Program-made: the position numbers and the translations under genes | DNA from: Methanobacteriota archaeon | GTDB lineage: Archaea > Thermoplasmatota > E2 > DHVEG-1 | Assembly (NCBI GenBank): GCA_963769885.1 | Contig: CAVYNH010000003.1 | Coordinates: forward strand, 1-62,432 | Reading direction: 5' to 3' | Length of the DNA stretch: 62,432 nt | Shown here: positions 11,203 to 57,718 of the stretch, piece by piece | Numbering within the stretch: the first letter of the stretch is position 1 | Layout of the letters: every line of letters begins with the position of its first letter | Notes under the pieces: model-generated | Seen by the model: only the letters and a program-made list of their open reading frames with translations | What the model was told of the DNA's origin: nothing | Databases searched by the model: none

Positions 11203-11896
11203 CTACAACCTCACGCTCACCTTCGATGCCGCACCAATCCCAGGGATACTCAGGCGCCGTTCAATCAAATCAAACACCGTGCTCGAAATAACCGTCAACA
11301 CAATGTAGATTAGGGCAATGATCGTAAAGACCTCAAGGTACCGCAACGTATGCGCGGCGATGAACTTCCCCTCAGCCGTCAACTCATACACTTGAATAAT
11401 ATAGGCCACTGACGAGGTACTGCAATAAATAGATGAACTCATTGGACCACGACGGAATCGCAATCCGAAGCGCCTGCGGTAGCATCACATGCTCTATCGC
11501 CTGCCCCTTCGTCATCCCCAAGGACCGGGCCGCGACCATCTGACCACCCTCCACAGACTGAATCGCCCCTCGCAAATACTCTGCCTGGTACGCCGAACTA
11601 TTAATAGACAGCCCAACCAACGCAGCCTGCAACGGCGAAAACAAGATCCCAATCTGCGGAAACCCAAAATAGATAATAAAAAGCTGCACCAACAACGGCG
11701 TTCCCCGAATCAATTCGATGTAGCCAACGCAAAACCCGTTCACAATCCGATTCCCATAGACACGCCCCAAAGCGAGCAGGACGCCGACCACAAACCCCGC
11801 GGTGACAGCAACAAACGTCAACAGAAAGGTCACGCCCAAACCATTGAGAAGCTTCGGCAAGCTCGCCATAAAAAATTGCTCGAAGCTTGCGGCCAC
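11203..11896 (-). CDS. Polar amino-acid ABC transporter permease (apparent +1 frameshift at ~11416)
   Basis: RGTPLLVQ and EAA-type loop; removing one base at CAGTAC(C)TCG joins ORFs 11384-11896 and 11203-11463. Confidence 0.88.
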
Positions 11897-12640
11897 TCAA
11901 CTCCCTCCGTACAAGGCCCCAATCCGCCCGAGAAACTCCCGCGCCCGCTTTGTCTTCGCATTCGTAAACATCTCATGCGGCGACCCCTGCTCCACGACGA
12001 GGCCCCCTTCCATGAAAATGATCTCATCAGCAACGTTCCGAGCAAACCCCATCTCATGGGTCACAATCAGCATCGCGACCTTCCCAGCAAGACCTCGCAT
12101 CACATCCAGGACGCCCCCAATTAATTCGGGATCCAACGCCGAGGTCGGCTCATCAAACAAAATGATATCCGGATCCATCGCAAGGGCACGAGCAATACCA
12201 ACACGCTGCTTCTGCCCCCCGGAGAGATGCGCGGGGTACTGATGGACCTGAGCCGCAAGCCCCACGCGATTCAGCTCCTGTAGCGCCCGTGCGCGAGCGG
12301 CCTCCTTCTCAATCCCCTTGACTTTCTCTAGCCCGATACTGACATTCCGCAGAGCGGTCAAATGGGTAAAGAGATTAAAATCCTGAAACACAAACCCGAT
12401 CTTTTCACGGACCTTGTTGATGCCAACATGGGGGTCCGTGATTTCAACGCCATCGAGCCAGACCTCACCACTATCCGGCGGGCTCAGCTGGTTGATACAG
12501 CGTAGTAACGTACTCTTCCCCGAGCCACTTGGACCAATAATAACCTTCGTCTCCTCTTTCTCCATCGTAAAAGAAATCCCCTTTAAAATCTCGCACAACC
12601 CATATTTTTTATGGATATCTCTAACCTCAAGCATCGCCAT
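11897..12640 (-). CDS. Polar amino-acid ABC transporter ATP-binding protein (GlnQ-like)
   Basis: GPSGSGKS, LSGGQKQRV, FDEPTSALDPE, VTHEMGFA. Confidence 0.95.
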   Translation of the reverse strand: MAMLEVRDIHKKYGLCEILKGISFTMEKEETKVIIGPSGSGKSTLLRCINQLSPPDSGEVWLDGVEITDPHVGINKVREKIGFVFQDFNLFTHLTALRNVSIGLEKVKGIEKEAARARALQELNRVGLAAQVHQYPAHLSGGQKQRVGIARALAMDPDIILFDEPTSALDPELIGGVLDVMRGLAGKVAMLIVTHEMGFARNVADEIIFMEGGLVVEQGSPHEMFTNAKTKRAREFLGRIGALYGGS

Positions 12641-12664
12641 AGTACGACCCCCTCTCAGCCCCGA

Positions 12665-13339
12665 TCATCGGTGCGCCTCCGGACGATATCCCGCCATCCT
12701 ATATTTCTGATCCAGTAGATGCAGAAGCTTGTTCGCGGTGAGGACCAACGCAAGATAAATCGCAGCGATGAGTAAAAAAATCGGAAGAACCAACTCCGGA
12801 TTCTGGACCTGGATGTAGCGGCCTTGGCGCATGAGCTCGATGACCCCGATCCCAAAGGCTATTGAAGTATCCTTCAACAAGATGGTGAACTCATTGGTCC
12901 ATCCTGGCAGGGAAAGGCGTAGCATCTGCGGCATGATGATATACCGGATCGCCTTCACCTTCGACATCCCCAACGAAAAGGCGGCAGTGATCTGCCCATT
13001 CGGGATAGCATTGATCGACCCACGGAAGATCTGCGCCTGATACGCGGCACTCCGCAACCCCAAACCGAGAACAGCCGCAGCAAAGGCATCAATATACAAG
13101 TCGAAGGGATGAATCCCGAAGTAGATGATGAATAAAAGAACAAGGAGCGGGATTCCGCGGAAGATCTTTTCGTAGACGATAACCGCACTCGCAACGAAAC
13201 AACCAGTATAGCTGCGGCCGAGCGCCAGGATGACGCCAAGCGTGGTCCCCAACAGGATACCAAGCGCGGTAAGCGCAAGTGTTACACTTAGACCATCCAA
13301 GAGCTGGGGAAGGGCTTGGATGAGCGTATCCAGCGCCAC
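12665..13339 (-). CDS. Polar amino-acid ABC transporter permease
   Basis: FRGIPLLV, AYQAQIFRG, LLKDTS. Confidence 0.93.
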   Translation of the reverse strand: MALDTLIQALPQLLDGLSVTLALTALGILLGTTLGVILALGRSYTGCFVASAVIVYEKIFRGIPLLVLLFIIYFGIHPFDLYIDAFAAAVLGLGLRSAAYQAQIFRGSINAIPNGQITAAFSLGMSKVKAIRYIIMPQMLRLSLPGWTNEFTILLKDTSIAFGIGVIELMRQGRYIQVQNPELVLPIFLLIAAIYLALVLTANKLLHLLDQKYRMAGYRPEAHR

Positions 13340-13363
13340 GAGACCACGCTAATGAGCTAACGG

Positions 13364-14137
13364 TTACGAAGCGAAGTACGAGTCCACCAGGGCCGCCCAG
13401 TACGCTGAACCAGTGGTGTTGAAAAGCCCGTTGTCGATCTTGGTCAGGAGCGCAGTATTCCCGATTTTCACCGCAAACCCGTACGACTCATTCGTAATGA
13501 TGGTCAAGGCGACATTGACGGCCTTCTTCGCGGCAAAGGCATTGGCCACAGGGGAATCAATGACGAGGGCTCCGATGCGGCTCGGGCCGATTTCTAAATC
13601 GGCGACGGCATCGAGCACGTTTTCGTAGCTCCGGAATTTATCTAAGGCGAGCTTCCCCGTCGCCACCAACGTTGTGTTCACCCATTCCCATCCCGTGGTC
13701 CCTGTCTGGGCTCCGACCGTGTAGTTCGCGAGGCTGTCTGGGGTGGTGATGTTGACGCCGGATTCGTTTTTCACGAGCACGGATTGGTTGGCATCATAGT
13801 AGGGGTCGCTGAAGCTCACTTGCGCGCGGCGCTCTTCGTTGATCGTCATTGCGGCGGCAATGACGTCGATTCGGCCCTGTTGAAGCTCGGGGATAAGAGA
13901 GTCAAAGGCGATGTCTCGTACCTCGACCGTATAGCCTTGTTCGGTCAGGATATGCTTGATCAGATCAATGTCGAAGCCGATGATCGTGCCGTTGGGGGCT
14001 TTGTATTCGAATGGTGCGTAGTCAGCCGAGGTTCCGACAACAATTGTGTTTGCATTCTTTTGCGTGCATCCTGACAATAGGACACTAAAGAACGTGGCTC
14101 CTATCAGGACAATGGTGATAATTTTTCGTTTTACCAT
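13364..14137 (-). CDS. Amino-acid ABC transporter substrate-binding lipoprotein
   Basis: LSGC lipobox; YAPFEY, GFDIDL, FSDPYY (SBP family 3). Confidence 0.93.
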   Translation of the reverse strand: MVKRKIITIVLIGATFFSVLLSGCTQKNANTIVVGTSADYAPFEYKAPNGTIIGFDIDLIKHILTEQGYTVEVRDIAFDSLIPELQQGRIDVIAAAMTINEERRAQVSFSDPYYDANQSVLVKNESGVNITTPDSLANYTVGAQTGTTGWEWVNTTLVATGKLALDKFRSYENVLDAVADLEIGPSRIGALVIDSPVANAFAAKKAVNVALTIITNESYGFAVKIGNTALLTKIDNGLFNTTGSAYWAALVDSYFAS

Positions 14138-14326
14138 CGTATCCTCACCCGATGAAAGAACGAGTATTCATTATTTTAAGGTTCTCATCCTTTTCGTTGT
14201 TAATGAGGCTAGACCCTCGGGATACGTTGCCAGAAAAATCGTGACGGAGACAGTGATTTTCTTTTATCGTAACAAAAGATTTAAGAGGGAAGAGTCCTAA
14301 TACGTAGGCTTCAGGAGGAAGCCCTT

Positions 14327-16133
14327 ATGGAACCACACAAGAACCTCATCGTTTTCTTGATTTTCACAACACTGTCATTAACAAGCATCCTTCCCGCCAT
14401 CGCTCAAGTATCATCAACTCAGCCATCATCCGAAGTCGTCTCAGCCGATGAAGCGATTCGCGTGGCGATGACGCAGCTCCACAATAGCGAAAAGACCGAG
14501 TACTCTGTGAAAACGTGCCAGCCCGTGTCCCCTGCCGGCGAATGCCTCTTTTACGCCATCGACCTGGAGCCTACCGGCTATATCGTCGTCCCCGCATCAC
14601 GATACCTTCCACCCGTCATGGCCTACTCATGGACCTCACCCTTCGGCACCTACACCGCAGACAATCCCCTTTATTCGATGCTCATCGCAGACATTACCCA
14701 GCGCCTCGATAATGCCAGAAAGCTCCCCGCATCCATGTTAAACCAAGAAGCAGCCAAATGGGATGCATTTCTGACGAATCCTTCTTCCTCCCGCTGTTTC
14801 CAGCAATGGCCCCCGGAGGGCAGCACACCGACCGACGGCTGGGTCCTGACGCTCTGGACGCAGAACGCCCCATACAACAACCTCTGCCCCTACATCAACA
14901 GCGCGCGAAGCCTCGCCGGCTGCCCCGCCGTCGCTATGGCACAGATCCTTGCTTACTTCAACACTACCAAGAATGTTTCTTTTACGGATGCCGACGATTA
15001 TCATCACAACTATGGCGGAGCGAACTTCTACATTGACGACGACTATGTCGCCTACCAGTTCCCCTCATGGCCACAGCTCAATTCCTACCTTACCACACTG
15101 GAATCCCACTGGGCCACCCATACCGCTCTCACGAACCAAGATAAGGCTGCGCTCAATGTCGCCTGCGGGTTCGCCATGCATCAAGTCTACAATCCCAGCG
15201 GATCAGGAACCTTCGGCGTCGACCAGGCGTACCAAGGGTATCAGCGGTTCGGGTTCACGACCGCGATTTTGTTCATGGGCGAGAGCCAGGAGATGTTCCA
15301 GCATCTCTCCCAGGATATGAAACAAGGGATTCCTGCGCACCTTGCGATTGTCGACGCAGCGTGGCAATATGGGCATAACGTGGTCGTGGATGGCTACAAC
15401 ACCGATGATTTCTATCATGTGAACTTCGGCTGGGGGGGCTCGTACAATGGGTGGTACCACATCCCAGATGACTTTTCCCAAGCCCCGTATAATATGAGTG
15501 TCGTCGAAGGTGTCGTCGTCGATATTATGCCGGCTGAGAATCATCCCCCTGCTGCGCCAGGGCCTATTCATGGTCCTGCGGAGGGGCAGGTCGGCGTCGG
15601 CTATACGTATTCAGTGAATCAAGTCACTGACCCGGAGGGGGACTCGGTCCAGTACCTTCTTTGATTGGGGTGACGGGCAGACATCGGGCTGGATTGATCA
15701 GAACCAGTCCATCCATTCGTGGTCTGATGTGGGTACGTACCCTGTGAAGGCCAAGGCGAAGGACAGCAATGGCGCGGAGAGCAATTGGTCGGAGGTCTAC
15801 CAAGTGACAATAGGGGCCGCACTGCCTTCCTTCTCCGTTCAAATCTCTGCAAAGAAAGGGGTGACAGCCTCGTTGCGCAACAACGGAACGGCCGAGGCGA
15901 CGGACGTCGCATGGTCGGTGAATGTCACCGGCGGGATCCTCCATCGCATCGCGGTCCTTAAGACAGATACCGTCGCATCCCTCGCGCCGGAGGCAAGCGC
16001 CTCCCTGCAGACCAGCGTCTTCTTCGGACTCGGCGGCATCACAATCGACGTCGTAGCCTCATGCGATGAGGGCGTGAGCGCACACGCGACGAAGACAGGA
16101 ACAATCTTCTTCTTCCTGGTAAAAGTGAAGTAA
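14327..16133 (+). CDS. C10 (streptopain-family) peptidase with PKD-like module and conserved C-terminal domain (apparent +1 frameshift at ~15656)
   Basis: GCPAVAMAQI catalytic Cys, GHNVVVDGY His, NFGWGG; deleting one C restores QYFFDWGDG and reads into ORF 15729-16133. Confidence 0.88.
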
Positions 16134-16167
16134 CAGCGAGACACGAAACGGCGTATCCCGCTTTTTC

Positions 16168-16851
16168 CTATTTTTTGATAAGTGTACCAGCAAGAATGAG
16201 CGTGGCCGTACACCAACAAGCTCCGAGAAGCCATCCGCCCAGGATGTCGCTCGCCCAATGAGCCTCGAGATACAGTCGGGAGAAACTGATGAGAAGGACC
16301 GCGATGATCGAAAGGAAGACGACAACAAAGACCAAAGCCGGTGACTGAACTCTCTTTCCAAGGACAACAAGGACGATGCCGAAGACAACCACCGCCATGG
16401 CCGCATGGTCACTGGGAAAGCTGTAGCCTGTCGCCGGCACGAGCGCGAACGACGGTTGAGGACGGTGGAGCAGCTGCTTGACGCAAAAGACGACGAGCGC
16501 GCTCCCCAGGACCCCCAGCAACAACAGGAACGCCAGCGACCAGCGCTTGACGATGAGCGACTGAACGCCGGCGGCGACAGCGACAGTACCTAGGACCAGG
16601 GGTTGGCCGATGGTCGTGATAAAAAGGAAGACGCTCGTCGCCTGAGGGCTTTGCCAGGCCTGGAAGAAGACGGCGATCGCGCTATCCCAGGCCATGGTCC
16701 TCCCCTGGTCGACGCCAACCATCACAATGAAAAGACCAGCAAGGCACAGGAAGAATATCGCAACGAGCCGGCGGGACGTTCGGTCCCTGCTCAGGGTCAG
16801 CCTCATGCCGGGTCCATGAAGCAGCGGGTGGTTTAAGAGGATGCCGTCCAC
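16168..16851 (-). CDS. PAP2-family membrane phosphatase
   Basis: Kx4RPQP, SFPSDH and SRLYLEAHWASD motifs; start uncertain. Confidence 0.88.
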   Translation of the reverse strand: MDGILLNHPLLHGPGMRLTLSRDRTSRRLVAIFFLCLAGLFIVMVGVDQGRTMAWDSAIAVFFQAWQSPQATSVFLFITTIGQPLVLGTVAVAAGVQSLIVKRWSLAFLLLLGVLGSALVVFCVKQLLHRPQPSFALVPATGYSFPSDHAAMAVVVFGIVLVVLGKRVQSPALVFVVVFLSIIAVLLISFSRLYLEAHWASDILGGWLLGACWCTATLILAGTLIKK

Positions 16852-16939
16852 AGAAGGGATGGCCCACGGAAGGGAAAGTTCTATGTACCTCCCCCAGGGA
16901 TGAGATACACAGCCAATAGTTTGTTGGGAGGAAAAAGAA

Positions 16940-18253
16940 ATGTCCCACCGTCACGTCGGCATCCTGGTTTGTGCGCTTGTGGTTATCAGCACTCCGATGA
17001 TGCCCCTGGTATCAGCTACCGGTAGCGGGCATTCATCGGGCCCATGGCTGGACGAAATCGACGGGGTCCAGGTGATGCATCTGATCGGGACGCCGTACGA
17101 GATGGGGTTCCAGCATGGGTCGCTGCTCCGCGAAGAAATCCTGCAGGACCAGCATGCCATCCTCGCCACGGCCGAAAAGCTCGGTCATACCCAATCACAG
17201 CTCCTTGAGGCATGGGACACGGCGCGACCGTTCGTACCCCCCGCGCTGATCGAGGAGATGCAAGGGCTGGCGGATGCGGTGAACGTCAGCCTCGACCAGG
17301 TCGCCATGGTGCAGATGATCCCCTCGTTCGTCCACTGTTCCGTGTTCGCAGCCTGGGACAATGCCACGGTCGACGGCCGACTCTATTACGCCCGTAGCTT
17401 CGACTTCCCGCTCACAATCCAAGACCCAGAGTCAGGCGTCTTCGTCCAAGACAACGCGGTGCTCATCGTCCGCGAGCCGCAGGGCGGCCACGCCTCGCTG
17501 TCCCCCAGTATCGCTGGGCTGATCGGCAGCACCGGCGGCTTCAACGACCAGGGGATCACCACAGCCGTGCTCTCGTGCTGGAGCCATGACGAGACGAAGG
17601 CGGGCAATCCCATGACGTTCAGGCAGCAGACCATGCTGGATGAGGCGACGTCGTTCTCCGAAGCCCTCGCCATCCTGAACACGAACCGGACGGAAGGCTG
17701 GAATTTCATCGTGGCCAATACCACGCGAGGAGTCGCGGTCGAACAGACCGCCAACGTCTCCTACCAAGGGACCTGGGATGACCCGGTGGAGGCCACACGG
17801 CCATTCTGGCCCATCCCCAATGTCGTCCGGCGCACGAACCTCTTTATTAGCCCGCAAACCGCGGCAACCCAGCGGGAACGCTACAACCCCCGCCTCCTCC
17901 CGCTCCTCAGCTATCTCACCGGGAAAAGCAAGTTAGGCTGGTTCATCGTCCCGGCGTACCTGCCCTGGCGCCACTACCAGGCGCTCAGTAAAAGCCTGGA
18001 GTCCGCGTGGGGCGGTATCGACCAAAACAGGAGCATGCAGATTCTCCGCGGTGTTTATAATGGCAGTGTCGACCCCGTCTTCCACCTGTTTGTCGCCCTC
18101 CATTTATATTGTACAATCCACCAATGGGTCGTCTGCCCCGCGACCGGCGAGATCCTCATTTCGTTCGCCCACGGGTCCGCCAACGCCTGGAGCCAGCCCA
18201 TCCACCGCTTCACGCTGGATGAACTCCGGTCCCATATCCCGGGCGGCTCCTGA
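16940..18253 (+). CDS. C45-family Ntn-hydrolase peptidase, secreted
   Basis: GTPYEMGFQHG, EEMQGLA and HCSVFAAW (nucleophile Cys), GGFNDQGI. Confidence 0.88.
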   Translation: MSHRHVGILVCALVVISTPMMPLVSATGSGHSSGPWLDEIDGVQVMHLIGTPYEMGFQHGSLLREEILQDQHAILATAEKLGHTQSQLLEAWDTARPFVPPALIEEMQGLADAVNVSLDQVAMVQMIPSFVHCSVFAAWDNATVDGRLYYARSFDFPLTIQDPESGVFVQDNAVLIVREPQGGHASLSPSIAGLIGSTGGFNDQGITTAVLSCWSHDETKAGNPMTFRQQTMLDEATSFSEALAILNTNRTEGWNFIVANTTRGVAVEQTANVSYQGTWDDPVEATRPFWPIPNVVRRTNLFISPQTAATQRERYNPRLLPLLSYLTGKSKLGWFIVPAYLPWRHYQALSKSLESAWGGIDQNRSMQILRGVYNGSVDPVFHLFVALHLYCTIHQWVVCPATGEILISFAHGSANAWSQPIHRFTLDELRSHIPGGS

Positions 18254-18342
18254 AGAAGGGGCGCCTCTCAGAAGCATATCTTTATATAGGTTCGAGACAT
18301 AATTGTACCTAAATACCGATTTTAAAAGGGGGATAAATAATA

Positions 18343-20706
18343 ATGCGAAGAAGTATACCACTCTTAGTGGCAGTAGCCATAATGGTAAGCGGGTGTGTCG
18401 CGGCCGCGATCCCTCAACAGAACACAACCAAGATCGCCACCGCCGTCAACTTTTCGTCACCACAACTGAAAGAAGTAAACGACTACCTCACGGTCACTCT
18501 CACCGAGATGACCTCCTATGCCATCGCTGAGGGAAAACCAGTACTCCCACGAGTCGTCAAGGTCTTTGACCTACCCTTCGGCGCCACCGACGTCTCCGTC
18601 CATGTCACCACCACCGGTGTCCACGAACAGACCGTCGCCAAGGACATCCAGCCAGGGCCCAAGGCCCTCCCACTCGACGATAACGCCAATGTTGAGACCA
18701 CCGTGACCGAGGATGCCGCCACCTACGCTAGCAGTCAGCCTTACCCAGCATCCTGGTTTGAGTACGCGGTGACCGGCGGCCTTGATAATAACTTTAACCA
18801 CGTGACCCACGTCTCCGTCGCCCTCTACCCCGTCCGCTGTCTGCCGGCGTTGAAGACCATGCAGATTGCCGACTCCATGCAGGTGACGGTAACCTACCAG
18901 CCCCCGAGCCACCCGAAGACCTTCGGGACCGGCTACGACATGGTCATCATTGCCCCCAGGAAGTTCAACTCGATCCTAGCGCCTCTGGTTACCCACAAGA
19001 ACAGCCACGGCGTCAACACCACGATCAAGAACGTCGAGGACATCTACAAGGGGTACAGCAACGCCACCGACAAGGCAGAGAAAGTCAAGTACTACATCAA
19101 GGACGCAATTGAACAGAACGGCATCACGTTCGTCATGCTCTTCGGCGGGTTAAAGAACAAGATCTATGCCATTGACCGCGAGAACCCGAACACCGGGTCG
19201 AATGCCTGGTACGTCCCCATGCGGTACTCGAACCTCTGGGATGGGGCGCCTCCCGACGTCTTCGATCCCGGGTATCCCTGTGATCTCTACTACTCGGATA
19301 TCTACACCGGCACGGGCTCCTTCTCCAGGTGGGATGGTCCCAACCCTGATGGGATCTACGCGGCCTGGAGCTACCCAGGTCACCCGAAGGATATCTTAGA
19401 TATGGATCCTGACGTCTACGTCGGCCGGCTCGCCGTCACCACCAAAGCAGAGGCGAAGACCGTCGTCGACAAGATCATCTCCTACGAGACCGCCGCGAGC
19501 GGCGACTGGGAGAAGAAGATGGTCACCGTCGCCGGTGACGGCTTCCAGGACCAAAACGACCTCAACATCAAGTGGAACGTCAACAGCCTGCCGACCGGAA
19601 CATACACGATCTATGCTCAGAGCATGAACAACGACAGCACCACGGGCCCGATCGACATCATCAACGTGACCGTCGACCTCACCAAACCCTCGAACATCAC
19701 CTTCGTAGAGGACGACAACGATTTCGGCCTCATCTTCCCAGCCCCGCCCCGCGCAGAGATCACGTCTCCCTCAGAAAACGACATCCTGGGGAACACCGCA
19801 GTCAGCTACATCCCGCCTCGCGCATATATCGGAGAGAACTGGGCGAAGGTCGAGTATTCGGCTGGAGTCATGACCATCCGCGGCAAGTCCTACGACCCGA
19901 GGCCCTTCGGCGTCTTCACTCTCATCCACGTCTGGATCAAGAACAGCGCTGCCGTGACCGTCTTTGACACCCAGACGCTCTCTGAGGAATGGTTCGAGAG
20001 TGAATGGGAGGTTGCCAAGGCAGAAAGCTACATACCCTCCGACTTCAACATCACCGAACTCTGGGGATCCGACGGCAAACTGGTCAACCAAGCCAGCGTT
20101 CTGCCAGTCTACAGCGAAGGCGCGCTCTTCGTCTATTTCGCCGGTCACGGGAACCCGCGGATCTGGGCGAACCACTTCCCCGGCATCCCCGGTGGGCGCC
20201 ACAACGCCAGCATCGATGGCCTAGCCAACGTGCAACTCAGCGCACCATTCCTGCCCATGAACAAGCTGACGAACGGCGGGAAACTCCCGGTCACCCTGAT
20301 CGATGGCTGCCACAACAGCATGGACAATATCACCCTGCTGCGGTCGATCTTCCAAGGAGCAATGTACTGGACGTACGGCATGCCGGTCTTTGACTGCTTT
20401 AGCTGGACCCTGATTCGTGAGAAGAACGGCGGCGCCATCGGCACCATCGGCTGTGCCGGGCTTGGCTACGGCTACCTCGGATGGGCTGCCACTGAAGGCC
20501 TCGGCGGCTGGATGAACTCCCATTTCTTCCAAGTCTGGCGCACCATCCACGACTCCGGTAAGCCTGCCTACCTCGGGCAGGTCCACTCCACGACAATCCA
20601 TGATTACCGTGCGGAGTTCGGCACCGGTGATCAGACTGACGCCAAGACCATGCAGGAGTGGACGTTCCTCGGCGACCCCAGCCTCGTGATCGGTGGATAC
20701 CAATAA
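18343..20706 (+). CDS. C25 gingipain-family cysteine peptidase
   Basis: Propeptide GKPVLP; DLYYSD, PDVYVGRL, FAGHGN...IDGCHN, FLGDPSL. Confidence 0.9.
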   Translation: MRRSIPLLVAVAIMVSGCVAAAIPQQNTTKIATAVNFSSPQLKEVNDYLTVTLTEMTSYAIAEGKPVLPRVVKVFDLPFGATDVSVHVTTTGVHEQTVAKDIQPGPKALPLDDNANVETTVTEDAATYASSQPYPASWFEYAVTGGLDNNFNHVTHVSVALYPVRCLPALKTMQIADSMQVTVTYQPPSHPKTFGTGYDMVIIAPRKFNSILAPLVTHKNSHGVNTTIKNVEDIYKGYSNATDKAEKVKYYIKDAIEQNGITFVMLFGGLKNKIYAIDRENPNTGSNAWYVPMRYSNLWDGAPPDVFDPGYPCDLYYSDIYTGTGSFSRWDGPNPDGIYAAWSYPGHPKDILDMDPDVYVGRLAVTTKAEAKTVVDKIISYETAASGDWEKKMVTVAGDGFQDQNDLNIKWNVNSLPTGTYTIYAQSMNNDSTTGPIDIINVTVDLTKPSNITFVEDDNDFGLIFPAPPRAEITSPSENDILGNTAVSYIPPRAYIGENWAKVEYSAGVMTIRGKSYDPRPFGVFTLIHVWIKNSAAVTVFDTQTLSEEWFESEWEVAKAESYIPSDFNITELWGSDGKLVNQASVLPVYSEGALFVYFAGHGNPRIWANHFPGIPGGRHNASIDGLANVQLSAPFLPMNKLTNGGKLPVTLIDGCHNSMDNITLLRSIFQGAMYWTYGMPVFDCFSWTLIREKNGGAIGTIGCAGLGYGYLGWAATEGLGGWMNSHFFQVWRTIHDSGKPAYLGQVHSTTIHDYRAEFGTGDQTDAKTMQEWTFLGDPSLVIGGYQ

Positions 20707-20719
20707 ACACGGGGATCCA

Positions 20720-20765
20720 CCCCTCTCTCCTCTTTTTTTCCCTTTCTTCTCTTTTCTCCCTGTTT
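20720..20765 (+). terminator. Archaeal pyrimidine/oligo-T terminator
   Basis: CCCTCTCTCCTCTTTTTTTCCCTTTCTTCTCTTTTC just after the stop; similar tracts at ~2176-2205, ~21710-21750 and (minus strand) ~52117-52140. Confidence 0.6.
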
Positions 20766-20942
20766 CGCTGCCGGCTAAACACGTGTTCCTATTGCCCACC
20801 ACCAAAATAAGGTGAGGGTGACTCGACTTCTCAGTTGCATGATTTCACCGGCGAACCCCATTCTCCTTCCTGAAAACTATTTAAATATATGGAAATCATT
20901 ATAAATACGCTTACCTACTATTGAGATGAGGTCGAAAATTCT

Positions 20943-21707
20943 ATGCAAATGAAAACAAAGGGTACCGTAAAGAAGACTTCACGCCATGCAGTCTACGCCG
21001 TGCTCTTCTCCCTAATTCTCATACTGCCCGCCGTTGAGGCAGCCACGCCCACCCAGCCGATAATCCAGGCGCCAGTGAAGGCATCGGTCAAAGCACCGCT
21101 CAATGTGACCATCATCAAGCCCCTTCCAAATGCAACATATTTCATGGACAAACCCTTTCCTGTCTCGATATTCAACAATAGCTCTTTTGCCTATGGGAGA
21201 CTCACGATCATCGCCAATGTCACCGGGGATAACCTCACCCAAGTACTAATTTCTGTAGATGGGACGGTCATCGGTAATTTTACGGGTGGGAATGTTTCGA
21301 GCGGATTGTACAATGCCACCTGGTCAAAAATCATCCAGGCCCCCTTCAAGCATACCATCAAGGTCGTCGCCTTCAATGAGACCGCGAACGCCTCAGCATC
21401 CGTCAACATCGTGACCTGGAGGCTCCATGTCCTCCCGTTCGCTGTCGTCGCAGCCATGATGCTGCCGGCGGTGATCCCCAAGACGACCATCCATGGCCTC
21501 GTCTTCAACCTGCACAAGAATCCCTTCGGCTACACCTTCTACGCCATTTACATCCACTACAAATCCGTGAATCTGATGAAGAAGGAGACCGGGACCATTG
21601 TCATGAAGCGCGTCCACGTCGGGCCGGCCCTCAACATGCGCATGCTAAATGTCTCCCCGCTGCGGCTGGCCAGGATCTCGAGCACCTTCCTCGGCATGTT
21701 CACCTAA
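20943..21707 (+). CDS. Hypothetical secreted/membrane protein with Ig-like domain
   Basis: Signal peptide; many NxS/T sequons; internal hydrophobic segment. Confidence 0.7.
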   Translation: MQMKTKGTVKKTSRHAVYAVLFSLILILPAVEAATPTQPIIQAPVKASVKAPLNVTIIKPLPNATYFMDKPFPVSIFNNSSFAYGRLTIIANVTGDNLTQVLISVDGTVIGNFTGGNVSSGLYNATWSKIIQAPFKHTIKVVAFNETANASASVNIVTWRLHVLPFAVVAAMMLPAVIPKTTIHGLVFNLHKNPFGYTFYAIYIHYKSVNLMKKETGTIVMKRVHVGPALNMRMLNVSPLRLARISSTFLGMFT

Positions 21708-21976
21708 ACCCTGCCTCTCTTTCTCCCCTTTTTCCCTTTTTTCCTATTCTTAAATTCTAACAATGAACATCTATTTTTTTGAACAAGGGACGGCTGCCCC
21801 GGGCAATGGCGGGAGAAACTCCATTCCTGGACTATGTCCCCATTGAGCATTCGCTGATCTTCATCATCATCGCAACGATTATAGCGACGAAGCTGTCAAT
21901 CCTTAACATAGTTTTAAATATATTAACTCAGTTACATATTTCGCCTATTTGCTTTGATTGGACGGGAGGAAATACA

Positions 21977-22892
21977 ATGGAAAAAAAACTCTTAGTTATT
22001 TTATGCACGCTAGTGATGACGACAACCGTTTTTCCAATAATGACCGTCGGTGAACCAACACCAAATAATCCACCGGAAATCCCTATGATGATGGGCCCGA
22101 CGAACGGGAGCGTCGGCATCGCCTATGAATATCTGATAAGCACATGGGATCCCGAATATGATAATGTCTCGGTACTGGGTCGAATGGGGAGATGGAACAC
22201 ACACGGGCTGGATCGGCCCCTATCCATCCGGCGCACATGTTGCGACGAATCATACATGGATGGAGAGAGGGAGTTATGCAATCACCGCGAAGGCAAAGGA
22301 TATCTACGAGGCGGAAAGCAACTTTTCAGCTCCTCTCATCATGAACGTGACCGGCCCCCAAATCAACGTCGTGATACGACCGCGTGGAATCGGCGCCGCT
22401 GCCACAATCCTGAACTGCGGAGAGGAAACAGCGAGGAACGTCTCTTGGACCATTACATTGAATGGAGGAATCATCATCTTCGGAGGCTCCAATGGAGACA
22501 CTATCGACACGGTTCTTCCAGGCGAAAGCATTCGTGTCACCTCGTTCTTCTTCGGCCTCTTCAGAAGCACGATCACTGCCACTGCCGATAACGACTCGGA
22601 TGCCCTCGGAGGCCTCCTCATCGGGCCGTACCTTTTTTCCGTGACGAAAAACAAGACCTTCAACGGGACAGTCAAGAAAATCAAAGGCGAGAAAATTCAG
22701 GTCGTGAACGTGAGTACGTCGTTGGAAGAATTCAGGATCGGTGACGGCTGCAAATTCAAGGCTAAAAACGGAACTGCGATTGACCGCGATAAGATAAAAG
22801 TGGGCGCGAAAGTCAAGGTCACCTGGGTGCGATCACAAGGGACTGCGGGGAATACAGAACGAGTGGCAATTGAAATCCAACTAATGGAATAA
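21977..22892 (+). CDS. Secreted PKD-module protein (apparent +1 frameshift at ~22171)
   Basis: GGGAGG RBS; MEKKLLVIL signal; deleting one G restores DNVSYWVEWGDG and joins the two ORFs. Confidence 0.78.
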
Positions 22893-23178
22893 ACACGAAA
22901 ACGGCGAGGCCCGTTCATCTTAAAGACACCCCGTGACTCGACGGATCCGTCTCCATTTTTCCTCTACGGCGAGAAAGAGAGTCAACCATCGCCTTTCTTG
23001 GATATGTCCGAGAATCAGATGAACCAAGAACACATCACCAAAAGTGTTAAAACAATCCGCTGAATTCGTGGAATGCCTCGGCAAACACCACACAAACTCG
23101 GGCGCGGAACAATGGGGATAGCATCGAAAATTCTCCTCTGGAATCCGTCAAAGATATCGACGAAACGTACGATGAGTC

Positions 23179-24637
23179 TTATTTATCTACGAGAATCTCT
23201 CGATGCATGACGTCCTGATACGACTGTAGATTCTTCTGTATTCCTTTTCCTATCCAACAGTAGAGGCATAATTTTTCTTTAGGGAGCCCAATCGCTTTCA
23301 CCATATCATCGAGGAGCTGATACTGCAATGAGGTTGCGCCAAGGTCCTTTGCAATCCATTCAATCATCTTTTTGTATTTTTCAGAGGACTGATTGACATA
23401 TTCCGATACGTCCTCAATATCTTTTCCTTCAAGAGCTCGAATGGCTCTGCGTGCAGCTAATTCCTGGATACTTCTCGTTGAGAGATTATAGACGCAGGGG
23501 AACATTAGTGGAGGACACGCGGGCCGCACATGGACTTCTTTTGCCCCTGCTTGCATCAGTTTTGCAATCGTGTAATTCTTCAACTGTGTCCCCCGTACGA
23601 TAGAGTCTTCACATAGCACAATTCGATTTCCCCGCGCGATCGCCTCATTCGCGATTAATTTCATCAGCGCGATGCGATCGCGCAGCTCCTGGGTCAGGGG
23701 CGTATAGCTCCGACCGTACCCAGGCGTATATTTCAACAGCACCCTCCGATAGGGGATTCCGGATTCAATCGCGTACCCCACTGCATGGGCGACTCCTGAA
23801 TCAGGGACGCCTGAAACTAAGTCTGCTTTCACCTGATCCCGCTTTGCTAGGAACGCACCGCAACTCTCCCGCACTTTTTCAACATTTATCCCTTCGTAGG
23901 AGGAAGCAGGAAAACCGGTGTACACCCATAGGAATGCACAGATCTTCGTACCATGATGCCCTTTCTTTTTCTCTTCAATGCCTTTCTTGCTGATAAAGAC
24001 GATTTCTCCTGGTGAAATATATTTTTTCACGTTGAATCCGAGATTGGGGAACGCGCAGGTCTCACTGGCGACAGCGACCTCCCCGTCTTTCTGACCAATG
24101 GCTAAGGGGGTTACGCCATTGCGGTCTCTCGCACAATAAATCCCTTTCTTTGATAACAGCAACAGAGAAATCGACCCGATGATCCTATTGAACATCCGTT
24201 CGATGCCATACGGAATGCTATTTCCTTGATTAATCAGATGAGCGACAAGTTCGGTGGTGTTGATATCACCGTGGTCGATTTCACTAAACGATATTCCTTT
24301 CTCGATCGAGCTCCTGGGCTAACGTCTCTGTATTGACAACAAGACCAGCGGTGCATATGGCGAATGCACCGAATTTACTTTCAAACGTTAACGGCTGAGG
24401 GTCTTTATCGGAAATGACCCCTATCCCCAGATGGCTCTTGATTTTGTCAGAACCCTCATAAAACTTCGATTTAAATTGCGAATTTCTAATATCATGGATC
24501 TTCTTTATGGGCTTTCCATTTTTTTCGATAAACGCGATACCACCATACTCTGTTCCCAGATGAGTATGGTAATCTGTGCCATAATAAAGACTAGAGATGC
24601 AGTTGTTATTGCTCACGACGCCGAATAATCCGCTCAT
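23179..24637 (-). CDS. purF: Amidophosphoribosyltransferase, variant without N-terminal Cys (apparent +1 frameshift at ~24304-24308)
   Basis: GVPDSG, EDSIVRGT PRPP motif, CPPLMFPC and CLYC Fe-S ligands; corrected junction reads AQELIEKGISFSE. Confidence 0.88.
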
Positions 24638-24867
24638 CGTTTCTCCCCGCTGCCAAGTCAAAGAAGCGATGAATTCTATTTAAGGATTATTAATTTATCA
24701 ACCCGATGTTGAAGTGTTTTTCCGAAGGGGTCTGATTCGATATTTTTCTCGATCAACTGATTGCTCCTATTTCATAGCCAAAAATGTTCCGCAACTAACA
24801 GCATTTACATCAACCGTTGAATGCCCTGGGATACTCGTTAGGGGGCATCATTTTCTAAGCCACCTGT

Positions 24868-25575: not shown

Positions 25576-25780
25576 CCAGCATTCGCCCTTTGTTCCTCGT
25601 GATAAACATGATTATCCCCGTTAGGTATAATGATTTTTCCGTTCTCCTCCCTCCTGTGAATAGCTTGTTCAAAAGAAGAAAACGAATCTTCTCTAAAAAA
25701 GTCAGGATGCCGTGAGTGTGCAACGATGAAATTCAAACAGGTTTTTTTCTGGCAACACACGACAACGGGCCTGTTGAAGT

Positions 25781-26890: not shown

Positions 26891-26982
26891 TATATCTGTT
26901 CGTCCTTATAATTTTTCACACTGTTCTTATATGAAGGGAATATAAAGAAAGGGAGGAAGGGTGCTCCCCGTGCTTGAGGGGG

Positions 26983-27519: not shown

Positions 27520-27536
27520 GGTATTATTTCCTTTAT

Positions 27537-45379: not shown

Positions 45380-48300
45380 ATGGATGGGGAGACCGAGCAA
45401 AACCACGTAGCAGCAAGCCCGCAGATGCGCGCCTACTTCGCCAGCCTCCAAAAGGGCATCGACGCCTGCTACTCCATCGCGAACCAAGCCAGGAAAAAAG
45501 GCCTCGACCCCGAATTCACCGTCGAAATCCCCCAAGCCCTCGACCTCGCCAGCCGCGTCGAACAACTCGTCGGTCCACCCGGCGTCGCCCCCCTCATCCG
45601 ACAGACCACCAAACGCCTCCAAAACCGCGAACTCGTCTCTCTCGAAATCGCCAGAGAAATCGTCAAAGGCACCATCTACAAAACCACCAGCACCGAGAAA
45701 GCCTTAGACCAAGCCGTCCGCACTGGCCTCGCCATCCTCACCGAAGGCGTGTTAGTCGCTCCTCTGGAAGGCATCGCCGACGTCAAACTCGGCCGCAACA
45801 CCGACGGCACCCACTACGTCGACCTCTACTTCTCCGGCCCCATCCGCAGCGCCGGCGGCACCGGCCAAGCCATGAGCGTCCTCATCGCCGACGTCGTCCG
45901 CCGCGACCTCCACCTCGAAGCCTACCACGCCACCACCGGCGAAATCGAACGCTACAAAGAAGAAATCCCCCTCTACAAACGCGTCCAACACCTACAATAC
46001 GTCCCCACCGTCGACGAAATCGACACCATCGTCAGCCACTGCCCCATCTGCATCAACGGCGAAGGCACCGAAGACGAAGAAGTCACCGGCTACCGCGACC
46101 TCCCCCGAGTAAGCACAAACCGCCTCCGCGGCGGCGCCTGCCTCGTCATCGCCGAAGGCCTCTGCCTCAAAGCACCCAAGATCTACAAACACATCAAAAC
46201 ACTCAAACTCACCGGCTGGGACTTCCTCGAAAAATTCGCGACCAAAACCACCCAAACCACCACCACAACCCCTGACGAAATCCCCCAAATCCCCCCATCC
46301 ACAAAATACATCGGCGAAGTCATCGCCGGCCGCCCCGTCCTCGCCCACCCCAGCAGGAAAGGCGGCTTCCGACTCCGATACGGACGCGCCCGAACGGCGG
46401 GCTTGGCCAGCACCGCCATCAACCCCACCACCATGCACCTCCTCGACGACTTCATCACCGTCGGCACCCAAATGAAGACCGAACAACCAGGCAAAGGCAC
46501 CATCGGCACCCCCTGCACCACCATCGACGGCCCTATACGTACTATTACACAACGGCGACCTCATCGCCGCCAACACCCTCGCAGACGCACCTTCGCCCGC
46601 CGACATCAAACAGATCATCGACGTCGGCGAACTCCTCATCCCCTACGGAGAATTCCTCGAAAACAACGCCCTCCTCCCCGACGCTAGCTACGTCACCGAA
46701 TGGTGGATCCAAGACCTCCAACACACCCTCAACCTCCTCCCAGAAAAAAACACGCCCCACGCCGTCAAAGACGCCGACACAAAAACAACAGAAAAAATCG
46801 CCACAGACCTCGGACACCCCATCGACCTCACCCACCCCACGCCACAGGACGCCCTCACCCTCTCAGACCACTACCATATCCCCCTCCACCCCGACTACAC
46901 CAGCTTCTGGCACGACATCACCCCCGACCAAGCAGCCCAACTTCGAGAGTTCATCCTCACCCACGGCACCATCACCCCCGACGGCACCCTCACCATCCCC
47001 GCCGATCCCGCCATCAAAGACATCCTCATCAACCTCTGCCTCCTCCACAAACACCGCGACGGACGCCTCCACATCGACGCCATGACCCAGCCCCTCCTCC
47101 GCTGCCTCGGCATCCAAACAACCGGTACCACCCTCACCTCCATCCCAGACCACACCCCACCCCAAGACAACGAAACCACCATCGCTTTCGTCACCAGACT
47201 CGCCCACATCACCATCCGACCGCGCGCCCCCTTCCGCATCGGCACCCGCATGGGCAGACCAGAGAAAGCCGCAGCCCGCAAGATGCGGCCCCCGCCCCAC
47301 GTCCTCTTCCCCCTCAAGAACTACGGCGGCAACCAACGCCTCGTCAAAACCGCTGCCGAATCCGGTATCATCATGGTCGAAGCCGGCGTCCGCCTCTGCC
47401 AGAAATGCAACAAGAAAACCTACCGCATCACCTGCACAACCTGCGGCAGCCACACCATGGTCCTGCCCGGCCAAATCGAAGAACAACCCATCAACCTCAA
47501 AGAGGAACTTGAGCATGCACAGGAAAGGATCGGGGAACGCATACTGCCGGAGACCATCAAAGGCGTCATAGGGACCATCTCCAAACACAAGACCCCGGAG
47601 CCCTTGGAAAAAGGGATTCTGAGGGCCAAGCATGAGGTCTACACGTTCAAGGACGGTACTATCCGCTTCGACATGACGGACGCACCACTCACCCATTTCA
47701 AGCCAAAGGAGCTCGGTGTGCCTCTGGACCGCATCCGTAATCTGGGCTACACCAAGGATTACCTGGGCAATGAACTAGTGAATGACGAGCAGGTCTGCGA
47801 GCTTAAGGTCCAGGATGTCGTCATTTCCACCAAATGCGCGGAGTACTTCCTGCAAGTCTCGCACTTTATCGACGACCTTCTCGTCAAATTCTATGGCCAG
47901 GAGAAGTTCTACAAGCTTCGCAAGCAGCAGGACCTTGTTGGTCATCTGGTCGTCGGTCTCGCGCCTCATACCTCTGCAGGTGCACTCGGTCGTATCATTG
48001 GTTTTACGACTGCCCAGGTCTGTTATACACATCCCTTTTATCATGCGACAAAAAGAAGGAATTGCGATGGGGATGAAGATGGTCTCATGCTCCTCATGGA
48101 TGCTCTATTGAACTTCTCACATTCTTACATCCCTGACAAGCGCGGCGGCAAGATGGACCTCCCCTTGCTCATCACGACCCGCCTGGATCCCTCCGAGGTT
48201 GATAAAGAGGCGCACAACCTCGATACCCTTGCCCGCTACCCGTTGAAGTTCTACGAATCGACCTGGAAACATGAACATTCTCGGAATTTGGAGCCAATCA

Positions 48301-48815
48301 TGGACTGCGTCTCCTCCAGGCTTGGCACGGAACTGCAATACGAACAATTCGGCTTCACCCACGACACCAACGACATCTCCGAAGGCCCCAAGGAATCCAT
48401 CTACAAGACATTGAAAACGATGATGGACAAGATGAACCTGCAGCTGAGCCTCGCTGCAAAAATCCGTGCGGTGGACGAAGCGGATGTCGCCACCAAGGTG
48501 ATCGAGCAGCATTTCCTGCCAGACATCATTGGGAACCTACGGGCGTTCAGCAAGCAATCGGTGCGCTGCCCGACGTGCAACGTCACGTACCGGCGGATCC
48601 CGCTGCAGGGGGTCTGTGGGAAGTGCCAAGGGAAGCTGACATTGACGGTGCATGAGATGTCAGTGAAGAAGTACCTTGATATTTCGAAGGAGATCGCGGA
48701 GAAGTATCATCTGCCGACCTACGCCCGGCAGCGGATCAGCCTGGTAGAGAAGTCAATCGACTCGTTGTTTAAGAGTGATAAAGTGAAGAATACGAAATTG
48801 AGCGACTTCTTATAG
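45380..48815 (+). CDS. polC: DNA polymerase D large subunit DP2 (apparent +1 frameshift at ~46538), no intein
   Basis: GPIRSAGGT, GGFRLRYGR, RMGRPEKA, RRNCDGDED catalytic motif, C-terminal Zn finger; corrected junction reads IDGPIVLLHNGD. Confidence 0.95.
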
Positions 48816-54356: not shown

Positions 54357-54458
54357 AGGGATGTACACTCCAATATGAGAAACTTATGTTTTTCTTGTTT
54401 TTTGGGGAGTTAGGTGTGAACTAGGGTGTAGGATTAAGATGAGTGTGCTGGGGTATAT

Positions 54459-55049: not shown

Positions 55050-55053
55050 GGTG

Positions 55054-55485
55054 TTACCGCCTCATGGGTTTCTCGACCTTTCCTTTGACGAGTTGGTCGA
55101 GGCTGACGTCGTTGACTTTGATGACTTTGAAGCGGACGCCGGGGATGTCGCCGTAGGATCGGCCCATGCGGCCGCCGATGCCTTCGACGACGACTTCGTC
55201 GTGTTCGTCGATGAAGCCGATGGCGTGGTTGCCGGGGGCGAAGGCGGTGATTTGCCGTCCGTTTTTGATGAGTTGGATCTTGACGCATTTGCGGATGGCG
55301 GAGTTGGGCTGTTTGGCTTCGACGCCGACTTTTTCGATGACGATGCCTTTGGCTTGGGGCACGCCCCCGAGGGGGTCTGCCTTCTCCTTGAGGTGGAGGA
55401 CGCGGCGTTTGTAGTACCGGTCACTCCAGCGGAGATGTTTGCGGGTTTTCTTGATTTTGCGTGCGGCGTTGAGTCCTTTGCCCAT
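55054..55485 (-). CDS. rps12: 30S ribosomal protein S12
   Basis: [22 protein letters not shown]. Confidence 0.98.
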
Positions 55486-55830
55486 TCGGTCACCTTTATC
55501 GTGTGTACTCTGAGTTAGTGAGTGGTTGAGGGTAGGCAGAATACCGTTTTACTATTTAAAGCTATTTCGTGGGTTCCTCCTAGAGACGGTCGTGTGAGTC
55601 TGGCGTGGATATTGACGGTACGGTGGTCCTAAGGTTTGCGGGGGAGTTTCAATACATCGAGCAAATTTTTTTATCTCTATCAATAAATATTTAAACGGAA
55701 TAGGATTATGAGGAGGAAGTCTGGAATTCGGGAGGTACACCATTCGATGCAAATGGCGAATCAACAAGTGGCGACAAAGAGAAGAATCTTAATTAACACC
55801 TTCTTATATAACTACTATAGGCGATATATA

Positions 55831-56058
55831 ATGAGCTCGACAACGACCATCCAACTCGAGAAAAGCGTCGTAGAGGCATTGAAAAAAATCCGGGACCATC
55901 CCCGCCAAACCTACAACGAGCTCATCTCGAATATGATCTCGATTTACACCGCGTTCAAGAAGCGCAACCAGTACGACGAGTTCCTCCATAAAATCCAGCA
56001 GCAGAAGATGCGAGAACTCTGGGAGAACAAGGAAGATGAAGCCTGGAACGACGCCTAA
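55831..56058 (+). CDS. Putative RHH-type antitoxin
   Basis: TTIQL beta-strand plus helices; acidic WENKEDEAW tail overlapping the toxin start. Confidence 0.75.
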   Translation: MSSTTTIQLEKSVVEALKKIRDHPRQTYNELISNMISIYTAFKKRNQYDEFLHKIQQQKMRELWENKEDEAWNDA

Positions 56059-56365
56059 ACCCGGCGACGTCATCTTAGCAAACGTGCAGTTCACCGACAC
56101 GTTTGAAATCAAACGGCGGCCCGCCGTCGTCCTCTTCGAGGAGTTTGATAACGTGGTCGTCGCTGGCATCACCAGCAATCGCCGCATGGACGGCATCCCT
56201 CTCCTGAAAAAAGAGGGCGCCATCAAGGACAGCGTCATCAAAGTCAACTATCTCTTCACGATCTCAACCAATCTGATTGAACGCACATTATTTCAGCTTT
56301 CTCCAGAGAAAAAACGTGTCCTGTTTGATGCGTTACTCAAGCGGCTGCAGGGGCTTCTGCCGTAG
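56036..56365 (+). CDS. PemK/MazF-family toxin
   Basis: GDVILANVQFTD...KRRPAVV...GITS. Confidence 0.88.
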   Translation: MKPGTTPKPGDVILANVQFTDTFEIKRRPAVVLFEEFDNVVVAGITSNRRMDGIPLLKKEGAIKDSVIKVNYLFTISTNLIERTLFQLSPEKKRVLFDALLKRLQGLLP

Positions 56366-57718
56366 CTTTCTGGACAGGATGGGTCCACTGTCGTACAGTA
56401 TTCAGGATTTGCTCGACCGCGAGCGTCGGAGCGTTGTTCTCCTGCATCCGGGTCCTTAGACGCTTGGCATTCTCTAGGTACGTGTCGTAGTCTTTAAAGA
56501 TGGTCTCCAGTGCCTTGAGGAGTTTCTTGCTGGTGAAAAACCGCTTGGACAGCTGGATGCCGACGCCGTTGCGCATCAGGTTGTCCAGGTTCCACTGCTG
56601 CTCTGCGTGCAGCGGGATGCCGACGACGGGGCGGCCGGAGAGCGCCGCGGTGTAGACTGCGCCACGCCCACCCGTGATGATCGAGACGTCCGCCTGCTCC
56701 TGCAACTGCTGGATGGAGGGGAAGAACTTCCGCAGCAGCACGGTGGGCCGCGCCGGGGGCAGCTCCTCCTCCGTCACCAGGTTCTTGTAGGAGGCTAGGA
56801 TCTTGTACCCAGTATTCTGCAGCGAGGTGACAACATCAAGGAACATGTTCTTGTTGCGGAAGGTGCCGAGGGCGACGAGGACGGTGCGCCCGGGGGCGTC
56901 GAGGAGCGCCTGCACCTCAGCGTCTACCGCTTCGCCCTTGACTATGGTCGAGTCCTCGGGGATGATCGGACCGACGAAGTGCTCATGAGGCGTTAGAGTG
57001 TCTGAGGATAGGCCAACGAATTCCAGGTTGTCGAGCACGATGGTCTCGTCGCCGCAGAACAGGTCGAGGAATCGATGGACCGGCGGGGTATGGTACTTCT
57101 TCGCCAGCTCGTTGCATGCCTTGACCCCCCATTTGCAGTGCAGGATGTACTGGTTGGTGAGCAGGTTCTTGAGCCGGCGGGGGACGAGCCTTGTCAGGCT
57201 GTTCTCGTAGCCGTCGGGGAACGTCGCCTTGTTGGCCTTGAAGAAGGAGGGGGTGGCGACGCCGGAGAGGACCATGATGAGGGGAAGTTTGACGACGCGC
57301 GCGGAGATCAGGGGTGTAAGGGAGAAGCTGGCGACGACGGCCTTGATGCCCTCGCGCTGGAAAATCTCGATTTCCTGCTGGATGCGCTCCTCGCCGTCGA
57401 AGATGCTGCGGAACAGGGAGGGGTAGATCTTCTCCAGGGTCGAGTCTTTTTCATAGGTACTTGACCAAGCGCTCTCGATACTCCTCCGTGGCTTTCCTGG
57501 GCGGGGGCCGGGGGAGTTCGATGATGCGGAAGCCGAGCTCGCGGGCGTACCGGTTCGTACTCGTCGGGGTAGCCGATGAAGACTGCCTCGCCGCCCATTT
57601 CCCGGTACTTGCGGGCGAGGGCGATGAGGGGGTAGGTCTCCCCGTAGTTTTTGAAGCAAGGAAGGAAGGCGATTTTGGGAAGCCTGGCATCCTCCCAAGC
57701 TGCCTTGACGCAGCTCAT
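56337..57718 (-). CDS. GT-B glycosyltransferase (GT1/GT28-like) with two apparent +1 frameshifts (~57552, ~57456)
   Basis: LVALGT, ITGGRG, PVVGIPLHAEQQWN; three overlapping frames join by deleting two single bases. Confidence 0.8.

Follow-up and report, generated by a model that had tools for sequence, protein, structure and literature searches.

Single-base frameshifts at GTAC in a Thermoplasmatota genome assembly are long-read consensus errors with base modification as their likely cause

Frame breaks in the window

The window analyzed here, the whole 62,432-nt stretch of contig CAVYNH010000003.1, contains eight gene-breaking frameshifts in the deposited sequence, each checked against intact homologs. 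They interrupt genes for an ABC-transporter permease, a C10 peptidase, a PKD-domain protein, PurF, a geranylgeranyl-reductase-like protein (GGR), the PolD large subunit DP2 and a glycosyltransferase, the last of which is broken twice (Table 1). All eight had been placed by an earlier note on this DNA, and each was found at, or a few bases from, the position given there. Seven of the eight lie 0–5 nt from a GTAC; with GTAC ± 3 nt occupying 2.9% of the window, the binomial probability of this outcome is 1.2e-10. A ninth false base, an intergenic C at GTAC 16885, indicates that these events are independent of genes.

Table 1. Single-base lesions in the window, with the affected genes
Feature	Lesion	Position	Strand	Effect or evidence
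ABC-transporter permease gene, 11203–11896	GGTAC with one false base (+1)	11416–11420	-	breaks gene
C10 peptidase gene, 14327–16133	GTACC with one false C (+1)	15652–15656	+	breaks gene
Intergenic site	GTACC with one false C	16885–16889	.	X3 and X1 contigs
PKD-domain protein gene, 21779–22892	GGTAC with one false base (+1)	22170–22175	+	breaks gene
purF, 23179–24661	false base 24307 (+1) adjoining GAGCTC 24308–24313		-	breaks gene
GGR gene, 33303–34534	G4+TAC, G5 expected (-1)	34083–34089	+	breaks gene
PolD large subunit DP2 gene, 45380–48815	false base just 5' of GTAC (+1)	46537–46542	+	breaks gene
Glycosyltransferase gene, 56337–57718, second break	GGTAC (AGTACC on the gene strand) with false base (+1)	57456–57460	-	P0003
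Glycosyltransferase gene, first break	GTAC-cggttc-GTAC, false base in the 6-nt spacer (+1)	57547–57560	-	P0003–P0005

The frame changes were located in part by comparison with G001, a rebuilt genome of the same genus that also served as the genome-wide reference for the genome under study (G000). Against the intact G001 ortholog, the permease gene, which matches Pfam BPD_transp_1, passes from frame -2 to -3 at 11409–11417. Reading the C10 peptidase gene in three frames against its single-frame G001 counterpart gives CAG TAC [C] TTC TTT GAT TGG. The PKD-domain homologs P0022, P0023 and P0024 move from frame 2 to 3 between 22168 and 22173, and the purF alignment to the ortholog in G008 (80% identity) switches frame at 24308/24306, with the GATase_7 profile divided between both gene pieces. 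DP2 is encoded by an intact 1153-aa ORF in G001; its high-scoring pairs join at 46537/46539 with a change from frame 2 to 3, and the Pfam PolC_DP2_central profile splits exactly at position 91.

Two of the events can be described more precisely than before. Although all seven indels assigned to GTAC do lie near one, the GGR event is a loss in the G run ahead of the GTAC, unlike the gains at the other six; the fifth G missing from 34083–34086 was deduced from a three-frame reading against G001 paralogs and their KGG.T..P motif, and both gene pieces fall in one frame in G001. Similarly, the first glycosyltransferase break is real but does not sit at 57547: in P0003, P0004 and P0005 the reading frame changes from -2 to -3 near 57554/57552, which puts the site at about 57551–57556, in the spacer separating GTAC 57547 from GTAC 57557. 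The second break is placed by P0003 (92% identical), which changes from frame -3 to -1 at 57457/57455.

No further frameshifts were detected in the parts of the window with G001 orthologs. Candidates at 2491, 2520 and 10252 were dropped, as the orthologs keep one frame there, and the junctions at 54376–54431 and 58713–58917 proved to be gene-boundary artefacts.

Association with GTAC across the genome

Genome-wide comparison of G000 with G001 revealed GTAC at 35 of 98 frame-changing junctions, against about 11 expected. In a strict set of junctions, GTAC was present at 15 of 31 (1.4 expected; p = 7e-13), while a reverse control showed no enrichment (2 of 24; 1.7 expected). The strong genome-wide enrichment that the earlier note had named as a check was thus observed. 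Almost all of the GTAC junctions (33 of 35) are +1 events, whereas the remaining junctions split 35:28. GGTAC or GTACC, one event seen from either strand, occurs at 32 of the 35 sites (48% expected; p = 6e-8), so that the proposed reading of GTAC as GTACC on one strand describes the dominant event, and an A stands upstream in 25 of 31 (25% expected; p = 1e-10). The main form is AGTAC to AGTACC, and DNA alignments place GTACC in G000 opposite GTA-C in G001. A KpnI-type GGTACC motif was rejected: GGTACC shows no special depletion and most sites are not GGTACC. A few other junctions fall at homopolymers (C6, G5 runs). The GTAC lesions resemble the homopolymer-length errors of long reads in being gene-breaking single-base indels, and the GGR lesion, with G5 read as G4, is of that kind; the dominant class, in contrast, lies outside homopolymers and doubles a lone C (or G) within one particular tetranucleotide.

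The penetrance of the event is low. About 25–28 of 420 AGTACC sites in covered coding sequence are affected. The error reaches roughly 2% of AGTAC sites and about 2–6% of candidate sites, and about 2–3% of genes are broken. Such penetrance is what a pure sequence-context weakness would give, i.e., a basecaller or polisher that adds a C at (A)GTAC regardless of any modification, and the strong dependence on the flanking A would be expected from such a weakness as well. We nevertheless regard this explanation as unlikely. The benchmarking papers examined here, among them PMC6591954 and PMC10687267, record no generic GTAC bias and attribute residual motif-bound errors to methylation. Moreover, a second and rarer error class, which includes the purF site, occurs at (G)AGCT(C), and this motif and GTAC are together known targets of N4-methylcytosine (m4C) in archaea (PMC10609329).

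The purF lesion had previously been ascribed to GATC, with a suggestion that GATC might be modified too. The first proposal does not hold, and the second is not supported. The lesion is not a GATC event, because CTCGATGAGCTC, which contains no GATC, remains once 24307 is deleted. GATC is present at 11 of the 98 junctions where about 20 are expected, and no Dam-type gene was found, a profile search of the genome returning no match to PF02086 (Dam-like methyltransferases).

Three further comparisons did not contribute to locating errors. GTAC is scarcer in G000 than in G001, with a ratio of 0.68 that is the lowest among all 4-mers; this deficit was considered as a sign of substitution errors, but reflects real divergence, since nearly every replacement is a synonymous change of NNG-TAC to NNC-TAC. 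A reference-free scan for ORF pairs that merge after a one-base indel returned 500–2800 background intervals per genome, made up of gene boundaries and shadow ORFs, in which the signal was lost. Aligning G000 to G001 with blastn and counting single-nucleotide gaps was likewise uninformative: at 76% identity, about 2500 occur in each direction.

Independent reads and the origin of the extra bases

We used contigs from public sequencing runs to compare the deposited sequence with independent reads. Run X1 is Illumina data with Nextera adaptor ends from the same population (43 of 45 contigs at least 99% alike), runs X2 and X3 hold a relative about 93–95% alike, and related strains occur in these and a further sample (X2, X3, X4). 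Site 15652 is uncovered in all runs, and 11416 and 22171 lack cover in X1. At both sites that X1 covers, 24307 and 16888/16889, the extra base is absent at a depth of 1–3; the X1 contig at 16885–16889 reads GTTCTATGTA followed by CTCCCC. Together, X2 and X3 lack the extra base at four sites: 11416 (X3), 16888 (X3), 22170/22171 (both runs) and 24307 (both runs). The short-read check suggested in the earlier note thus came out in its favor, with the extra base absent wherever contigs from public runs cover a site, including two same-population sites at a depth of 1–3.

The frameshifts are therefore consensus errors of the assembly and not gene decay, as the public-run contigs lack the extra base at every site covered. 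True pseudogenes would be expected to look different, with lesions varying in type and place: the lesions do not appear in independent reads, are uniformly +1 at one motif and also occur in intergenic DNA. Together with the genome-wide enrichment at GTAC, the public-run contigs support the earlier judgment that these are probably not true pseudogenes. DP2 is normally essential.

Real indels at GTAC would require site-specific mutation or pseudogenization, for example where repair introduces errors after a GTAC-specific enzyme has attacked the site, or else programmed frameshifting. Such processes would leave frame breaks in the deposited sequence and a non-random link to the motif, both of which are seen. 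However, this explanation is already largely refuted by the same-population Illumina contigs at both covered sites and by the 93–95% relative at four, and we consider it highly improbable. The G001 orthologs are all intact, conserved genes including PolD DP2 are among those struck, and the intergenic site carries the same event. It is equally hard to credit that the bin merges subpopulations and that the consensus took up minority indel alleles. The assembly was indeed binned from a metagenome, and X2, X3 and X4 hold related strains, but the natural strain indels observed in the region covered (14137/14150, 22907, 24723/24732) are intergenic or compensating and none is at GTAC. Furthermore, strain variation would yield neither a 33:2 ratio in favor of +1 nor one particular base at one motif.

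The long-read platform behind the assembly was most likely Oxford Nanopore; the seven long contigs and the homopolymer indels of the assembly are compatible with native-DNA nanopore reads. The artefact class is already known, in that nanopore consensus errors cluster in methylation motifs (PMC6591954, PMC10687267). Described cases include Dcm CCWGG (Wick et al., 2019; PMC6591954), novel motifs (Chiou et al., 2023; PMC10687267) and strand-specific errors (PMC11610603). As with these modification-mediated errors, which disclose the motif that an organism methylates, the errors here recur at one short motif, outlast consensus and polishing, and are absent from short reads. The papers examined here report mainly substitutions at such motifs, in contrast to the present +1 events, which double the final C of GTAC and strongly favor an A on its 5' side.

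The main value of these findings lies in quality control. Extrapolated to the whole public genome, roughly 50 genes appear pseudogene-like because of one false base each, with DP2 among those confirmed. Such bases depress estimates of completeness, and both pseudogene counts and reconstructions of metabolism would be misled by them. Because the errors are predictable, motif-aware polishing can flag or fix them, by the rule that a C or G doubled at AGTACC or GGTACT is deleted where this restores the frame.

A candidate modification and its enzymes

We conclude that the frameshifts are long-read consensus errors and that modification of GTAC is their likely and best-fitting cause. A base modification at GTAC would shift the pore signal, and basecaller and polisher may then sometimes emit an extra C. 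The modification is probably m4C on the last C of GTAC, a view suggested by three points: the doubled base is the final C, no C5-methyltransferase gene was found (no PF00145 match in a genome profile search), and archaea are known to possess orphan m4C methyltransferases that act on GTAC. The rarer class at (G)AGCT(C) may mark a second m4C motif in the same way.

The genome encodes four beta-class N6/N4 methyltransferases of family PF01555 (M1–M4), all outside the window, together with one PF02384 gene. The four genes lie at C1:17112–18551, C1:896–2092, C6:173910–174746 and C7:49098–50090. The enzyme responsible is presumably one of the four. M4 resembles M.PvuII, an m4C enzyme (E = 5e-103). 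That the genome encodes enzymes of m4C type argues against a mere context weakness of the basecaller; conversely, none of M1–M4 could be assigned to GTAC by PDB, NCBIfam, neighboring genes or taxonomic spread, which speaks for that explanation. No Pfam restriction-enzyme domain was found among the neighbors of M1–M4. In having no recognized restriction enzyme beside them, these candidate methyltransferases may resemble orphan m4C systems.

A REBASE survey describes persistent orphan m4C methyltransferases in archaea that target GTAC (groups HG10 and HG18) or AGCT (groups HG11, HG16 and HG19) (PMC10609329), and the same two palindromes bear errors in the present genome. Unlike the taxa with such groups, Thermoplasmatota has no persistent group listed in that survey, and membership of M1–M4 in any of them is putative. 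More tentatively, and with the balance somewhat against it, we suggest that the GTAC to GTACC insertion, along with the rarer one at AGCT, may be a specific read-out of m4C and that this lineage may carry the orphan pair for GTAC and AGCT. The footprint offers a testable hint of modification at GTAC, and probably also at AGCT, in an archaeal lineage that is uncultured. If the m4C read-out is genuine, a freshwater-sediment member of the Thermoplasmatota would share the m4C pair described as 'persistent' in Methanomicrobiales and Nitrososphaerota, and methylation motifs could be mined from frameshift positions in public long-read assemblies without recourse to raw data. The most conserved candidate is M2, whose family is spread through Methanomicrobiales, Nitrososphaera and Thermoplasmata, a distribution that fits the AGCT groups better than those for GTAC.

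Frame breaks in the window

The 62.4-kb contig C3, taken whole as the window, encodes an archaeal PolD and belongs to a seven-contig genome of 2.09 Mb with 55% G+C and 92% completeness. The closest genome and nearest database proteins are labeled as Thermoplasmata, Thermoplasmatota, or Euryarchaeota MAGs of sediment origin. For comparison, we rebuilt the genome of a sister species in the same genus (G001; 1.98 Mb, 57 contigs) and drew extra intact homologs from relatives and the protein database. The eight frame breaks recognized in the earlier note were borne out against these intact homologs; seven of them lie 0–5 nt from a GTAC, a motif that with 3 nt on either side occupies 2.9% of the window (p = 1.2e-10). 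Base 24307 of purF is surplus, since the ortholog in the related genome G008 switches frame between 24308 and 24306, and the path of the glycosyltransferase through three frames implies two +1 events (i.e., one base too many at each).

Frame breaks and false bases in the window, with the homologs or runs that reveal them
Feature	Position	Change	Comparison
ABC-transporter permease	11409-11417	frames -2 to -3	G001 ortholog in single frame
C10 peptidase	15652	surplus C: CAG TAC [C] TTC TTT GAT TGG	
Intergenic GTACC (ninth GTAC-linked false base)	16885-16889	second C surplus	second C absent from same-population Illumina contig and related strain
PKD protein	22168-22173	frame 2 to 3 in between	
purF	24306-24308	frame switch	G008 ortholog (80%-identical)
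GGR (geranylgeranyl-reductase-like)		only -1 among the eight	four G precede TAC, homologs require five
DP2 (PolD large subunit)	46537-46539	one +1	Pfam central-domain profile cut exactly at position 91
Glycosyltransferase	minus strand	frame -2, then -3, then -1	followed by database protein P0003 (92%-identical)
Glycosyltransferase, +1 event	57456/57457		
Glycosyltransferase, +1 event	~57552-57554		between GTACs at 57547 and 57557

In the same glycosyltransferase, at ~56718-56735, the final 78 residues of P0003 match the wrong window frame near a CCCC run, and the public assembly behind P0003 is therefore itself frameshifted there; the window frame is correct at this position, as backed by a second database protein, P0004.

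Independent runs and the genome-wide scan

Four public sequencing runs were compared with the window over positions 11000-30999. The run X1, from a freshwater sediment sample, has loose ends of Nextera adaptor sequence and is thus Illumina data; with similarity of at least 99% in 43 of 45 contigs, it represents the same population. X1 lacks base 24307, and in one X1 contig the stretch GTTCTATGTA continues with CTCCCC, one C fewer than in the GTACC of the window at 16885-16889. A wetland sample gave runs X2 and X3, which contain a relative ~93-95% alike; in it, bases 11416, 16888, 22170/22171, and 24307 are missing. The site at 16888, which was not in the earlier list, is intergenic, and the insertion event is therefore independent of genes. 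The remaining single-base indel differences from the wetland relative (14137/14150, 22907, 24723/24732) look natural. Each is either intergenic or compensating, none coincides with GTAC, and they contrast usefully with the insertions bound to the motif.

The whole genome was searched by tblastn with a set of G001 ORFs that did not overlap one another. Among 98 frame-changing junctions, 35 had GTAC within 8 nt (~11 expected); in a strict set (each piece at least 40 aa and at least 55% identical, junction no longer than 30 nt), GTAC was present at 15 of 31 (1.4 expected; p = 7e-13). The reverse control, with ORFs of this genome against G001, gave no GTAC enrichment (2/24 vs 1.7 expected). The change was +1 in 33 of the 35 GTAC junctions. 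The non-GTAC junctions split 35:28 and were mostly gene-boundary artefacts, together with a few homopolymer cases and a single GAGC[C]TC. The earlier note had named two tests of its reading, whether short reads carry the extra bases and whether frame changes are enriched at GTAC genome-wide; the missing bases and the enrichment mean that both favor artefact. The frameshifts are almost certainly artefacts, and the view that these genes are not true pseudogenes is upheld by the absence of the surplus bases from the independent runs at every site that these reach.

The form of the insertion was examined at 35 context sites, comprising 31 junctions that had just one candidate GTAC and four window sites verified separately. 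In DNA alignments, GTACC or GGTAC faces GTA-C or -GTAC in G001. These forms occur at 32 of the 35 sites (48% expected; p = 6e-8), so that GTAC read as GTACC, as first proposed, is the dominant event. When sites were oriented as GTACC, A stood upstream in 25 of 31 (25% expected; p = 1e-10), and the event is therefore AGTAC becoming AGTACC. Such sites make up ~25-28 of 420 AGTACC in the part of the genome covered by orthologs (63%).

The purF site had been placed near GATC, a suggestion that found no support. Removal of 24307 leaves CTCGATGAGCTC, without any GATC, and the surplus base directly adjoins GAGCTC. GATC was not enriched in the 98-junction set, no Dam-type gene was found in the genome, and a further +1 junction, at contig C6:386724-386726, lies within GAGC[C]TC and splits a gene into 382 + 338 aa. 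This junction is an example of an AGCT/GAGCTC error class outside the window, and on these grounds we assign the purF insertion to a second class of motif, rarer than GTAC, rather than to GATC.

Modification as the probable cause of the GTAC insertions

GTAC-bound false bases belong to a known class of phenomenon. Residual nanopore consensus errors are known to cluster in methylation motifs (PMC6591954; PMC10687267; PMC11610603), and archaea recurrently carry orphan m4C methyltransferases that target GTAC and AGCT (PMC10609329). Of the modification footprint originally proposed, the link to the motif stands, while modification as the cause is something we infer: the likeliest explanation, and a fairly probable one, is that GTAC is modified, probably as m4C. 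In its favor, besides these published patterns, the doubled base is the final C of GTAC, and the 92%-complete genome encodes four PF01555 beta-class N6/N4 methyltransferases, with no C5 methyltransferase found. One of the four, at C7:49098-50090 (L152:1435-2424, minus strand), is M.PvuII-like (N4-cytosine methyltransferase; E = 5e-103 to PDB 1boo), and no PvuII-type endonuclease domain was recognizable in the neighboring ORFs. Against modification, no enzyme of the genome could be tied to GTAC, penetrance is low, and the flanking A matters, as would also be expected if a basecaller weakness independent of modification were at work. Moreover, the most conserved methyltransferase, M2, has matches of 56-68% identity in Methanoculleus, other Methanomicrobiales, Nitrososphaera, and Thermoplasmata, a spread that fits AGCT groups at least as well. 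The motif association is of use for curation of this assembly and as a cheap methylome hint.

GTAC usage and contig C1

The window contains 179 copies of GTAC and the genome 5090 (~1 per 410 bp), with no avoidance by Markov expectation (observed/expected 0.91). Relative to G001, GTAC has the lowest ratio of any 4-mer (0.68). Its replacements are synonymous, NNG-TAC to NNC-TAC (893 cases, amino acid kept in nearly all), which rules out depletion as an error effect and marks it as real sequence divergence. Selection against GTAC may account for this loss, or else simple drift in codon usage.

The 77-kb contig C1 has a clearly lower G+C content (50.7% vs ~55%). Two of the four genes for beta-class methyltransferases lie on it (C1:896-2092 and C1:17112-18551), each adjoining an IS240-type DDE transposase, and it could represent mobile DNA or a recent acquisition.
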